From the NCBI RefSeq assembly GCF_050920415.1, contig NZ_CP169309.1: DNA of 64,000 nucleotides; one strand, 5' to 3'. This document shows positions 4,484 through 45,901 of this stretch, one piece after another. The DNA comes from Escherichia coli. Lineage in GTDB: Bacteria > Pseudomonadota > Gammaproteobacteria > Enterobacterales > Enterobacteriaceae. Under the pieces are notes generated by a model. It was not told where the DNA came from, made no database searches, and saw only the letters and a list, made by a program, of their open reading frames with translations. Numbering within the stretch: position 1 is the stretch's first letter; every line of letters starts with the position of its first letter. The position numbers were made by a program, and so were the translations under genes.

Positions 4484-6061
4484 ATGACGGAAAACATTCA
4501 TAAGCATCGCATCCTCATTCTGGACTTCGGTTCTCAGTACACCCAACTGGTTGCGCGCCGCGTGCGTGAACTGGGTGTTTACTGCGAACTGTGGGCGTGG
4601 GATGTGACAGAAGCACAAATTCGTGACTTCAATCCAAGCGGCATTATTCTTTCCGGCGGCCCGGAAAGCACCACCGAAGAAAACAGCCCGCGTGCGCCAC
4701 AGTATGTCTTTGAAGCAGGCGTACCGGTATTCGGCGTTTGCTATGGTATGCAGACCATGGCAATGCAGTTGGGCGGTCATGTTGAAGCCTCTAACGAACG
4801 TGAATTTGGCTATGCGCAGGTTGAAGTCGTAAACGACAGCGCACTGGTTCGCGGTATCGAAGATGCGCTGACCGCAGACGGTAAACCACTTCTCGATGTC
4901 TGGATGAGCCACGGCGATAAAGTTACCGCTATCCCGTCCGACTTCATCACCGTAGCCAGCACCGAAAGCTGCCCGTTCGCCATCATGGCTAACGAAGAAA
5001 AACGCTTCTACGGCGTACAGTTCCACCCGGAAGTAACTCACACTCGCCAGGGTATGCGCATGCTGGAGCGTTTTGTGCGTGATATCTGCCAGTGTGAAGC
5101 CCTGTGGACGCCAGCGAAAATTATCGACGATGCCGTAGCCCGTATCCGCGAGCAGGTAGGCGACGATAAAGTGATCCTCGGCCTCTCTGGTGGCGTGGAT
5201 TCCTCCGTAACCGCAATGCTGCTGCACCGCGCAATCGGCAAAAACCTGACTTGCGTATTCGTCGACAACGGCCTGCTGCGTCTTAACGAAGCAGAGCAGG
5301 TTCTGGATATGTTTGGCGATCACTTCGGTCTGAACATTGTTCACGTTCCGGCAGAAGATCGCTTCTTGTCAGCGCTGGCTGGCGAAAACGATCCTGAAGC
5401 AAAACGTAAAATCATCGGTCGCGTTTTCGTCGAAGTATTCGATGAAGAAGCGCTGAAACTGGAAGATGTGAAGTGGCTGGCGCAGGGTACTATCTACCCT
5501 GATGTTATCGAATCTGCCGCGTCTGCAACCGGTAAAGCACACGTCATCAAATCTCACCACAACGTGGGCGGCCTGCCGAAAGAGATGAAGATGGGCCTGG
5601 TTGAACCGCTGAAAGAGCTGTTCAAAGACGAAGTGCGTAAGATTGGTCTGGAGCTGGGCCTGCCGTACGACATGCTCTACCGTCACCCGTTCCCGGGACC
5701 AGGCCTCGGCGTTCGTGTTCTGGGTGAAGTGAAGAAAGAGTACTGTGATCTGCTGCGCCGTGCTGACGCCATCTTTATTGAAGAACTGCGTAAAGCGGAC
5801 CTGTACGACAAAGTCAGCCAGGCGTTCACCGTCTTCCTGCCAGTACGTTCCGTTGGTGTAATGGGCGATGGCCGTAAGTATGACTGGGTTGTCTCTCTGC
5901 GTGCTGTCGAAACTATCGACTTTATGACCGCACACTGGGCGCATCTGCCGTACGATTTCCTCGGTCGCGTTTCCAACCGCATTATCAATGAAGTGAACGG
6001 TATTTCCCGCGTGGTGTATGACATCAGCGGCAAGCCGCCGGCGACTATTGAGTGGGAATGA
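4484..6061 (+). CDS. guaA: GMP synthase (glutamine-hydrolysing)
   Basis: 525 aa, [22 protein letters not shown]...; ends IEWE* at 6059-6061, inside attL. Confidence 0.95.
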
Positions 6062-6063
6062 TT
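6047..6063. repeat. attL core (ATTGAGTGGGAATGATT), overlaps guaA stop codon
   Basis: Exact 17-bp copy of 45885-45901. Confidence 0.65.
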
Positions 6064-6109
6064 AACAGCTAACTCATAGCAAATCATTCCTATTCAGATG
6101 TCAACTCAA

Positions 6110-6140
6110 CCCTCTGTTTTTGCAGAGGGTTTTTGTTTTT
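6110..6140 (+). terminator. rho-independent terminator supplied by phage DNA downstream of guaA
   Basis: ccctctg-tttttg-cagaggg hairpin followed by T-tract. Confidence 0.6.
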
Positions 6141-6186
6141 ATGTATTCATTTCTATTCACTCTACACCATATTTTTCGGCGGTACA

Positions 6187-6197
6187 GGTGACGGTAT
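6187..6197. repeat. GGTGACGGTAT, candidate integrase arm-type site (left arm)
   Basis: Same 11-mer in right arm at 45803-45813. Confidence 0.3.
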
Positions 6198-6211
6198 TAC
6201 CTTAAAGGTAT
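6197..6211. promoter_or_regulatory. TTACC-N5-GGTAA family palindrome (TTACC TTAAA GGTAT), ~45 bp upstream of int
   Basis: Member of 13-copy intergenic motif family. Confidence 0.45.
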
Positions 6212-6253
6212 ACTCTCATACCGTCATGAAAATGGTTTCTATACGGGTGAATT

Positions 6254-43991: not shown

Positions 43992-44396
43992 ATGGCGCAT
44001 GTGCTGACAACAGAGTCAGTAAATCAGGGGTTAAGCCTGACTGCACTGGCGTCCGTGTTCGTTGGTATACCGCCTGAGGTGGCTTTAGGTGCTCTTGCTG
44101 GTGCGGTAATTTTTGTTACCTCAGCGGTTGAGTATCCGATAAAGCGTAGGTTGCTCCTGGCGCTCCTAAGCTTCCTCTGCGGCGTTCTCTTCTATAAAGC
44201 GACAGCTTCCATTCTGATTGGCTTTGCCAGCCTGATACCAACGATTACGCAGGACTCTTTTGAGAAGGGCATTGTGTATTCCGCCGGGGCATTCGTGTCT
44301 GCAATCGTCGCTGTTCGCATTGGCATCTGGCTGTATCACCGTTCTGAAAATCCGCGCGACATGATCCCGGGGAGAAAAGACGATGACCAGTCCTGA
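43992..44396 (+). CDS. holin-like membrane protein
   Basis: Multi-TM, first gene of lysis cassette; start 43983 (GTG) or 43992 (ATG). Confidence 0.45.
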   Translation: MAHVLTTESVNQGLSLTALASVFVGIPPEVALGALAGAVIFVTSAVEYPIKRRLLLALLSFLCGVLFYKATASILIGFASLIPTITQDSFEKGIVYSAGAFVSAIVAVRIGIWLYHRSENPRDMIPGRKDDDQS

Positions 44397-44676
44397 TCTG
44401 CTTCTCATCCTTAACGCCGCTATCTGCGGTGGCATTGCAATCCGAGTGCTTCTGTTCCGCCGTGACGGGTCACGTCACCGCTGGTGGGGTGGGTGGCTCG
44501 CCTATCTGCTGATCGTCGTGGCAGCCAGCGTACCTATCCGGACTTTCTACGGGTACTACGTCAGCGCCGACTGGTCAGAAGTCATCATCAAAGCCGTGTT
44601 CCTGGCTGCGCTCATCAAGACAAAAGGGAACGTGGTGCAAATTTTCAAGATAACGAGGTCCCAGCATGGACATTAA
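44383..44676 (+). CDS. lysis-associated membrane protein (holin/antiholin candidate)
   Basis: 97 aa with TM segments, overlaps neighbours. Confidence 0.4.
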   Translation: MTSPDLLLILNAAICGGIAIRVLLFRRDGSRHRWWGGWLAYLLIVVAASVPIRTFYGYYVSADWSEVIIKAVFLAALIKTKGNVVQIFKITRSQHGH

Positions 44677-45295
44677 CCAATTCCAGCGTGCAGCTGGCAT
44701 CAGTGAGGTGCTGGCCGCGCGCTGGTACCTGCATATCACCGCAGCCATGAAAGAGTTTGGCATCGAGCAACCGCTGCACCAGGCGATGTTTATCGCGCAG
44801 GTGGGGCATGAGTCTACTGGTTTCACCCGGCTGCAGGAAAACTTCAACTACAGCGTTGCAGGGCTCGCAGGATTCGTCCGCGCCGGGCGACTTACTCAGG
44901 GTCAGGCCAACGCGCTGGGCCGCCGTGCTGGCGAGCCATCGTTACCGCTGGAGCGCCAGCGCGCGATCGCCAATCTGGCGTACAGCAAACGCATGGGGAA
45001 CAATGCCCCTGGTGATGGCTGGAATTACCGTGGCCGCGGACTTATCCAGATTACCGGTTTGAATAACTATCGTGATTGCGGAAACGTCCTGAAAGTGGAC
45101 CTGCTGGAGAATCCTGAACTGTTGGCGCAGGACGAATATGCGGCTCGTAGCGCGGCGTGGTTCTTCGCCAGCAAAGGATGCATGAAGTATACCGGCGATA
45201 TTGCACGTGTAACTCTGATTATCAATGGTGGCCGGAACGGCATCGACGACCGGCGCGCGCGGTACATCACTGCCAGTAAGGTGCTGGCGGTATGA
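44666..45295 (+). CDS. endolysin, glycoside hydrolase family 19-like
   Basis: FIAQVGHESTGF and GRGLIQITG signatures. Confidence 0.75.
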   Translation: MDINQFQRAAGISEVLAARWYLHITAAMKEFGIEQPLHQAMFIAQVGHESTGFTRLQENFNYSVAGLAGFVRAGRLTQGQANALGRRAGEPSLPLERQRAIANLAYSKRMGNNAPGDGWNYRGRGLIQITGLNNYRDCGNVLKVDLLENPELLAQDEYAARSAAWFFASKGCMKYTGDIARVTLIINGGRNGIDDRRARYITASKVLAV

Positions 45296-45774
45296 TCTGG
45301 GCATTCGCAAAAGCATACTGGAAACAGTTGCTTATCGTGGTGATGCTTGCTGTTCTGGTCATATCGGGAATTGTTTCCTGGAATGTACACGGCAGTCGTC
45401 AGTACGATGCCGGGTATGCGCAGGCGAAGGAAGACCGCAAAGCTGAAGATGAGATAGTTCGTCAGCACTACGAACAGGAGAAATCGATCAATGAACGTGA
45501 AGCGCAGCAGAGGATCGACCAGGCGCGCAATGATGCTCTTGATGCTGCCGCTCGCGCTGGCCGGTTGCAGCAACAACTCTTTGCCATCCGTGAGCAGCTC
45601 AGGCAGTATAACGCCATTGTCGGCGCTGGGACGTCAGCCGCAGACACCGGAGTTTTGCTTGCCGACGTGCTCAGCAAATCTCTCGAGAGAAACAGACAAC
45701 TGGCAGAGTATGCTGACCGGGCAGCCGAAGCCGGAAGAGTCTGCGAAAAACAATACGACACCCTGACCAGATAG
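45292..45774 (+). CDS. i-spanin (Rz-like)
   Basis: N-terminal TM then coiled coil; ATGA overlap with endolysin. Confidence 0.6.
   Translation: MIWAFAKAYWKQLLIVVMLAVLVISGIVSWNVHGSRQYDAGYAQAKEDRKAEDEIVRQHYEQEKSINEREAQQRIDQARNDALDAAARAGRLQQQLFAIREQLRQYNAIVGAGTSAADTGVLLADVLSKSLERNRQLAEYADRAAEAGRVCEKQYDTLTR
45530..45766 (+). CDS. o-spanin (Rz1-like) lipoprotein embedded in +1 frame
   Basis: MMLLMLPLALAGC lipobox, Pro-rich; entirely inside Rz-like gene. Confidence 0.5.
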   Translation: MMLLMLPLALAGCSNNSLPSVSSSGSITPLSALGRQPQTPEFCLPTCSANLSRETDNWQSMLTGQPKPEESAKNNTTP

Positions 45775-45802
45775 CATGGCATTTTTCATGGTACTGATTT
45801 CC

Positions 45803-45813
45803 GGTGACGGTAT
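45803..45813. repeat. GGTGACGGTAT, candidate integrase arm-type site (right arm)
   Basis: Same 11-mer as 6187-6197. Confidence 0.3.
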
Positions 45814-45884
45814 ATAAAACGGTACTAGAAAAATGAAGTTTTGGAAAAATGTTATCACTCAATTGGTTATGATTGTCGTAAATA

Positions 45885-45901
45885 ATTGAGTGGGAATGAT
45901 T
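45885..45901. repeat. attR core (ATTGAGTGGGAATGATT)
   Basis: Exact copy of 6047-6063. Confidence 0.65.

Follow-up and report, generated by a model that had tools for sequence, protein, structure and literature searches.

How does a temperate phage come to lie directly against the end of guaA, the housekeeping gene for GMP synthase, and what becomes of the gene, of its terminator and of the phage? This question is raised by a 64,000-nucleotide stretch of Escherichia coli DNA (contig NZ_CP169309.1, hereafter the window), in which the interval 6047-45901 stands between guaA and the genes that follow it. We conclude that this interval is a prophage of the genus Uetakevirus, that is, a temperate podovirus like phiV10 and epsilon15, integrated site-specifically at the 3' end of guaA, and we give this reading a probability of roughly 0.92. 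Nothing in our results contradicts the prophage identity or the integration mechanism. The boundaries, the reconstructions of the empty site and of attP, the gene content and the disruption by the insertion sequence (IS) IS2 were observed directly. An earlier sequence-only reading had also placed a prophage here; its identification and its site were borne out, but the element is not intact, as IS2 splits one of its virion genes.

The boundaries are marked by a 17-bp repeat. The segment ATTGAGTGGGAATGATT occurs exactly twice in the window, both times on the + strand, at 6047-6063 (attL core) and at 45885-45901 (attR core). The left copy, detected by a repeat search, matches the published core (PMC9782041), and the right copy was located by the repeat search and by alignment of the flanks. 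No third site was found in the window even when two mismatches were allowed, and two matches appeared in 0 of 100 dinucleotide shuffles of the window. The identity is exactly 17 bp long, and the neighbouring bases on each side differ between the copies. To define the boundaries, the flanks were aligned with E. coli MFDS1022581 (NZ_CP169399.1), which has an empty site with an uninterrupted guaA-yfgI junction. Window positions 1-6063 correspond to 12561-18623 of that genome, 45885-49000 to 18607-21722, and 50311-64000 to 21720-35409, each with an identity of 100.000%; the prophage and an IS in pdeF excepted, the window is 100% identical to this strain. The first two alignments overlap on MFDS1022581 by exactly the 17-mer (18607-18623), and therefore the break in synteny coincides with the repeat to the base. 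The sequence-only reading had described the repeat at both ends, an integrase just inside the left copy and a lysis cassette just inside the right copy, and had proposed the alignment to a prophage-free genome. All of these points held: the integrase open reading frame (ORF) begins 190 bp beyond the left core, and the lysis cassette (43983-45774) ends 110 bp ahead of the right core. To the right of attR stand yfgI (45992-46531, - strand; RefSeq annotation of the identical flank), which is the first host gene, and then yfgH, yfgG and pdeF. The order that had been given, a terminator hairpin followed by these four genes, was recovered, but it had gone unremarked that pdeF is interrupted by an IS.

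The left junction determines the fate of guaA (4484-6061, + strand; 525 amino acids, aa), which is identified by the ORF list, by its C-terminus …PPATIEWE* and by the RefSeq annotation of the 100%-identical strain. The left core consists of the last four sense codons, the stop codon and two further bases (ATT GAG TGG GAA TGA TT), with the final 15 nt of the gene inside it. Considering that the 17-bp identity holds these four codons and the stop, and that the empty-site strain has the same sequence as window 1-6063, the GuaA product is unchanged by integration. Accordingly, the C-terminus IEWE* is indeed rebuilt at the left junction with its reading frame kept, as had been claimed. The gene is only conditionally essential, and its mutants are guanine auxotrophs. 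A similar situation is given by phage 21 and the element e14 at the 3' end of icd, where a housekeeping gene also stays functional through a supplied replacement 3' end. On the other hand, the gene and the integrase differ there, and the replaced icd segment is longer with some codons changed, whereas the replaced coding part of guaA is identical.

Both parental sites could be reconstructed from the window. An uninterrupted empty attB (285 bp) is present in 4463 of 5426 complete E. coli genomes. When the right prophage end was joined to the left, the resulting attP was found uninterrupted in 21 phage genomes, with identities of 97% to phiV10, 96% to vB_EcoP_ZX5 and 86% to epsilon15, and its core ATTGAGTGGGAATGATT lies between Rz and int as in Uetakevirus. 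In the published work on ZX5, the attP core is attgagtgggaatgatt, separated from the 5' end of int by 190 bp, and attB is at the 3' end of guaA; attB, attL and attR were amplified by polymerase chain reaction (PCR) and verified by Sanger sequencing (PMC9782041). The gap between core and int in our window is likewise 190 bp. The ZX5 paper states that the same core has been proven for phiV10 and epsilon15 (PMC9782041).

We considered whether the repeat could be a product of chance or of assembly, the phage DNA having come by homologous recombination or transposition. A repeat of 17 bp is short, and the window holds two IS elements, which would speak for such an origin. However, the pair was not reproduced in the shuffles, synteny breaks at the repeat to the base, and 567 independent genomes among the 5426 have the same guaA|int junction, while 364 have the same Rz|yfgI junction. 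Moreover, joining the prophage ends yields the attP that sequenced free phages carry. We rejected the chance or artefact explanation on this last point together with the empty-site alignment, and its probability is close to nil. A second possibility is that the element is not a phage but a GIsul2-like genomic island or an integrative and conjugative element (ICE), a kind of element that is likewise well known from this site. Such an element would use the same target, and its integrase belongs to the same cluster, the integrase of the guaA island of E. coli HS being 54% identical, without gaps, to that of the window. The published core of GIsul2, GAGTGGGA, lies in the 3' end of guaA (PMC9376610), and this octamer is contained in the 17-mer. 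On the other hand, the element carries the complete podovirus content, including terminase, portal, capsid, tailspike and lysis genes, and has no repA, tra or trb genes. In addition, the arm after its core groups with that of a prophage locus (L011) and stays apart from the 22 GIsul2-type loci described below. The island identity was rejected on gene content, and we consider it extremely improbable.

The site-specifically integrated Uetakevirus prophage is further defined by its relatives. For phiv142-3, the match extends over 92% of the left half with 97.8% identity and over 71% of the right half with 96.0% identity, and PAS61, ZX5, TL-2011b and phiV10 are the next relatives; phiV10 matches 75% of the right half at 95.5% in collinear blocks. 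These phages (phiv142-3, vB_EcoP_PAS61, vB_EcoP_ZX5, phiV10 and TL-2011b) are collinear with the prophage at 95-98% nucleotide identity over most modules, and they have in common with it the attP core, int 190 bp past the core, a terminator between Rz and int, the tRNA-Arg(UCU), the lysis cassette and the pair of tailspike and O-acetylase genes. The features of Uetakevirus are present, namely a podovirus structural module, a tailspike gene beside an O-antigen-modifying gene and a lysis cassette at the right end. The interval 6064-45884 comprises 39,821 bp, or about 38.5 kb after subtraction of IS2 and one target duplication (1,336 bp), and the genomes of the relatives measure 38.7-39.9 kb. Unlike these phages, the prophage has IS2 in an 824-aa virion gene, lacks the segment with the Bro-N anti-repressor, and has a different C-terminal domain of the tailspike and a 619-aa O-antigen acetylase in the position of the 338-aa oac product of phiV10. 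It also shows mosaic differences at 16.1-17.9 kb and 20.6-21.0 kb, including in the comparison with phiv142-3. Epsilon15, the Salmonella phage that is the type member (Kropinski et al. 2007, cited in PMC8138268 and PMC9782041), has the same 17-bp core, the integrase-binding decamer GTGACGGTAT, the same terminator position with a closely similar stem, and an attP with 86% identity, but it differs in its host and serotype-conversion genes, and the remaining genome is only about 76-82% identical where alignable.

The integrase is a tyrosine recombinase of 416 aa with a GTG start and a P4-like architecture (6254-7504, + strand; PHROG 1, E 4e-87). Its Pfam domains are Arm-DNA-bind_3 (PF13356, E 8e-20), Phage_int_M (PF22022, E 2e-11) and Phage_integrase (PF00589, E 1e-18), and the N-terminal domain matches the integrase arm-binding domains of PDB 3ju0 and 3jtz. 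When the C-terminal half was compared with PDB sequences, only spurious matches to WD40 and designed proteins were obtained; therefore, the catalytic residues were assigned by inspection of motifs and by the register of the match to lambda Int, and not by structural superposition. These residues are R238, K265, H335, R338, H361 and Y370, in the motifs MVR238KGE, RMK265G, VH335DMR338RT, LAH361E and AVY370, and the register (query 366 = lambda 338) sets Y370 opposite Y342 of lambda. In the phiv142-3 record int is split by a frameshift, and therefore DNA identity over the attP-int region was used instead of a protein comparison. It amounts to about 97% with phiV10 and 86% with epsilon15. Smyshlyaev et al. 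defined an epsilon15 cluster within the IntSXT subgroup, all members of which target the guaA 3' flank (PMC8138268). Judged by the DNA identity and this cluster definition, the integrase would belong to the epsilon15 cluster. The P4-like integrases of P4 and Sf6, which form the P4 cluster of IntSXT, are similar in domain architecture, in the position of attP beside int and in carrying a replacement for the 3' end of the target; however, they use the 3' ends of tRNA genes, whereas the integrase of the window acts on the 3' end of a protein-coding gene and is assigned to a separate cluster (PMC8138268).

The sequences around the cores contain candidates for the remaining parts of the integration machinery. 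The window contains only five exact copies of the decamer GTGACGGTAT, each of them no more than about 720 bp away from one of the two cores. They are putative arm-type integrase-binding sites, located at 6188-6197 (+ strand, P' arm), 6423-6432 (+), 6513-6522 (+), 6766-6775 (-) and 45804-45813 (+, P arm), and an inverted copy with one mismatch lies at 6218-6227 (-). In the GenBank record of epsilon15 the same decamer is marked as an integrase binding site; the record also shows integration host factor (IHF) sites and, following the core, a rho-independent terminator. A small AlpA-like DNA-binding protein (8751-8999, - strand) matches PHROG 66, 'excisionase and transcriptional regulator' (E 2e-16), and Pfam Phage_AlpA (E 4e-5), and by analogy it is a candidate excisionase (Xis). 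In the proposed mechanism, the P4-like tyrosine integrase would bind the arm-type decamers flanking attP and exchange strands within the 17-bp identity. Excision would need Int and the AlpA-like protein, which is encoded in the leftward early operon.

Integration also exchanges the terminators. On the phage side, a rho-independent terminator was found at 6108-6141 (+ strand) by a terminator scan and by folding, and it is already annotated in the GenBank records of phiV10 and epsilon15. Its hairpin (6108-6131), followed by a T-run, has a folding free energy (dG) of -16.4 kcal/mol and a z-score of -4.5. On the host side, the native guaA terminator (45925-45953, + strand) now stands behind the phage lysis genes; it folds into a hairpin at 45925-45948 (dG -17.8, z -6.7) and lies within the guaA-yfgI spacer of empty-site genomes. 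Both hairpins have the stem AACCCTCTGT / (A/G)CAGAGGGTT, in agreement with the claim that the phage supplies guaA with a different terminator of the same stem. Past the 17-mer, the terminator hairpin is the only part in which the phage arm and the E. coli flank are significantly alike, and there they are near-identical. The similarity of the whole arms was reached in 0 of 2000 shuffles, but the spacers between core and hairpin are not alignable (1875 of 2000 shuffles score as well). In the free phage, the phage-borne terminator would be located after Rz and before int. In the lysogen, this terminator, which follows the core in attP, would pass to guaA, and the native guaA terminator would move behind Rz and take the phage late/lysis transcript. 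Since similar terminators are swapped on integration, both transcripts would be terminated in either state.

The common stem raises the question of its origin. One answer is that the 'native' terminator of E. coli guaA is a relic of the arm of an older epsilon15-like phage, an idea that we find doubtful though worth stating. If it were true, mobile-element traffic through the conserved 17-mer would have overwritten the guaA 3' flank in different lineages. The near-identical hairpins of phage arm and host flank support it, and so do the cross-genus clusters formed by post-core sequences (see below), as expected of element-derived DNA. In E. albertii NBRC 107761 (locus L007), about 130 nt after the guaA stop form an arm of the GIsul2 attL type between guaA and yfgI, without an integrase. 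This arm contains a terminator of its own (AAACCCGCGTAACTGCGGGTTTTTTT) and an additional perfect hairpin, and by its sequence it appears to be the scar of a lost island that now supplies the guaA terminator. The relic idea is drawn from this scar by analogy and from the stem that E. coli has in common with the phage lineage. Alternatively, the phage lineage may have captured the terminator from an enterobacterial host. With regard to the two directions, the E. coli-type stem (AACCCTCTG) was not found by a regular-expression search in the 120 listed loci of other species, a set outside of which Salmonella, Citrobacter and Klebsiella fall.

Is the guaA 3' end then an unusual attachment site? The sequence-only reading had supposed so, and many textbook P4-like integrases do target tRNA genes (PMC8138268). 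However, the identical 17-mer has been published as the attP/attB core of three phages (PMC9782041), a guaA-specific epsilon15 integrase cluster has been described (PMC8138268), and TL-2011b is located in guaA (PMC3293862). GIsul2 and ICEs of Streptococcus also use the guaA 3' end. Accordingly, this part of the earlier reading failed. On the literature and on the junction counts in E. coli and other species we rejected a new or unusual kind of attB, which is very improbable. The element, its integrase cluster, its core and its terminator have already been described. We consider the window a textbook case of a prophage in the end of a housekeeping gene, carrying a replacement stop region and terminator, and its value lies mainly in the correct annotation.

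The junction counts are as follows. Among the complete E. coli genomes, the site is empty in about 82%, has a phiV10-type integrase junction in about 10%, and is followed by a different arm of the GIsul2 type in about 4.5% (243 of 5426). The insertion in E. coli HS has this GIsul2-type arm, then the integrase, repA, traJ, trbJ and trbL, and is a GIsul2-like island. Islands of the GIsul2/HS type resemble the prophage in their target, their integrase cluster, the position of int about 300 bp after the core in the same orientation, and the terminator of their own that they provide for guaA. They differ by carrying conjugation, replication or resistance cargo instead of virion genes, and by an unrelated post-core arm.

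A scan of species-representative genomes for the 17-mer gave at least 120 loci, and in 104 of the 120 listed it forms the very end of guaA (…TIEWE*). These 104 loci come from Alpha-, Beta-, Gamma- and Deltaproteobacteria, Bacteroidota, Clostridia, Actinobacteria, Verrucomicrobia, Spirochaetes and two archaeal metagenome-assembled genomes. A homologous integrase (44-87% identical) starts 200-430 bp downstream in the same orientation at 33 of the listed guaA-end loci, corresponding to 29 of the 79 listed loci with at least 1 kb of downstream sequence. A survey of guaA-adjacent integrases had been suggested earlier, and the 29 of 79 loci also argue against an unusual attB. Since guaA ends in this conserved 17-mer in many bacterial phyla and in some archaea, unrelated elements share the guaA target, and the guaA 3' end is a common, shared hotspot.

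The 90 nt that follow the core fall into cross-genus clusters among the matches listed, one of 22 loci (GIsul2 type) and one of 12 loci, mostly from Clostridia. In the former, the 90 nt after the stop are near-identical across genera of Gamma- and Betaproteobacteria; L003, L009, L012, L020, L024, L026, L037, L038, L041, L057, L078, L087, L095, L097, L106 and L111-L113 belong here, among others. The latter (L002, L030, L034, L066, L070, L073, L075, L077, L085, L090, L100 and L101), which includes one unclassified uncultured bacterium, has a conserved sequence directly after the 17-mer at the guaA end, and 3 of the 12 loci encode a distantly related integrase (about 23% identity) some 1.3 kb downstream. 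The cluster probably represents a Firmicute element family on the same core. At L025, L040, L053, L114 and about 10 other loci, non-guaA DNA precedes the 17-mer, and such loci probably mark the attR side of elements inserted in other bacteria. The upstream sequence is nearly the same in L040 and L114, and a similar motif is common to L025 and L053.

We then asked what state the prophage is in. An IS2 element of the IS3 family (35696-37026, + strand; 1331 bp), recognized by its transposase ORFs, its inverted repeats and the RefSeq annotation 'IS3-like element IS2 family transposase', lies within the 824-aa virion structural gene homologous to phiV10 p20. The gene is split into 35229-35695 and 37032-39039 (+ strand), and both fragments, of 160 aa and 679 aa, match PHROG 684, at profile positions 1-161 and 157-831. 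The IS2 copy has a 5-bp target duplication, GTACG (35691-35695 and 37027-37031), imperfect terminal inverted repeats (33 nt at 79%) and overlapping transposase ORFs of 136 and 301 aa. Removal of IS2 and one target duplication restores the 824-aa ORF. The same IS2 junction was found in none of the 5426 complete E. coli genomes. Epsilon15 gp17 is described in a review as an internal core or ejection protein (PMC5850374). In addition, the segment with the Bro-N anti-repressor of phiV10, phiv142-3 and ZX5 is missing: at 39225-39232, directly after a terminator hairpin, about 1.0-2.5 kb are absent in comparison with phiV10 and phiv142-3.

On the one hand, a fully functional prophage, inducible and giving infectious progeny like vB_EcoP_ZX5, would fit the full-length ORFs for int, the Xis-like protein, repressor and Cro, replication, terminase, portal, capsid, tail, tailspike and lysis, and also the two perfect att cores. 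On the other hand, IS2 with its target duplication cuts a gene that is intact in every free phage compared (phiV10 p20, phiv142-3 Orf13), and the anti-repressor, whose segment is absent here, affects the lytic-lysogenic cycle of ZX5 (PMC9782041). Because of the split virion gene and the missing segment we consider the prophage probably defective, and full function is improbable. In terms of sequence, the prophage is probably competent for excision yet would give no infectious particles.

Several points weigh against parts of this picture of a site-specifically integrated but probably defective Uetakevirus prophage. The predicted loss of infectivity holds only if the phage cannot do without the split 824-aa gene, and the gene is the counterpart of epsilon15 gp17 by gene order only. 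The anti-repressor gap may reflect ordinary mosaicism instead of a deletion. The roles proposed for the arm sites, the IHF sites and Xis come from annotation and analogy, and scans around attL and attR, and between the terminator and int, revealed no sigma-70-like promoter.

The annotation of the prophage is based on PHROG searches of 50 ORFs, and it gives a complete temperate-podovirus gene set. The left part encodes, on the - strand, a DNA methyltransferase (7699-8361; PHROG 359, E 2e-120), a RecT-like annealing protein (9049-9930; PHROG 561) and a RecE-like exonuclease (9927-10748; PHROG 412). The immunity region (12398-13367) consists of a repressor (12398-12982, - strand; PHROG 8) and a divergent Cro-like repressor (13137-13367, + strand; PHROG 35). 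On the + strand follow a replication initiation protein with a P-like helicase loader (13734-15331; PHROG 1032 and PHROG 109), the small (18409-19083; PHROG 51) and large (19080-20555; PHROG 2) terminase subunits, the portal or head-tail adaptor (21946-23625; PHROG 332), a protease (23915-24616; PHROG 458) and the major head protein (24625-25617; PHROG 212). Tail and internal virion proteins of 201, 823, 154, 181, 862 and 600 aa occupy 26826-35223 (+ strand; PHROG 394, 376, 308, 418, 992 and 1145). The phage tRNA-Arg(UCU) (21221-21297, - strand; ARAGORN, and Rfam tRNA at 72 bits), which is annotated in the corresponding position of phiv142-3, is situated after the terminase genes and before the portal gene but on the other strand, and it overlaps a predicted ORF (21040-21291) that nevertheless matches PHROG 4647. 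Two 87-aa ORFs of the prophage (17923-18186 and 21335-21598) had no PHROG match.

The tailspike of 751 aa (39685-41940, + strand) matches PHROG 8649 over its full length. Its N-terminus is conserved with phiV10 and its C-terminal, receptor-binding part is different, the nucleotide alignment with phiV10 (blastn) ending at 40166. The adjacent O-antigen acetylase of 619 aa (41976-43835, - strand; PHROG 6705, E 9e-179) has a GC content of about 37% in the GC profile, and it would be a gene of lysogenic conversion or superinfection exclusion that modifies the O-antigen. Over 40166-43862, the tailspike C-terminal domain and the acetylase are unrelated to their phiV10 counterparts, which implies a different O-antigen specificity and conversion function. 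The lysis cassette (+ strand; PHROG 198, 217, 181, 312 and 11621) contains two membrane or holin proteins (43983-44396 and 44383-44676), an endolysin (44666-45295) and Rz (45292-45774) with an embedded Rz1 (45491-45766).

Outside the prophage, the IS in pdeF is an IS3-family element similar to IS629/IS1203 (49001-50310; 1310 bp) with a 3-bp target duplication, CAT, and it divides pdeF into 47919-49040 and 50321-51475. No complete E. coli genome with the same junction was found. Within this element, Rfam recognizes an ALIL frameshift pseudoknot (49859-49975). At the other end of the window, 1-1364 is the 3' end of a very long adhesin gene, in which RefSeq marks a frameshift in the identical strain; this end adjoins the sinH/sinI locus, upstream of xseA.

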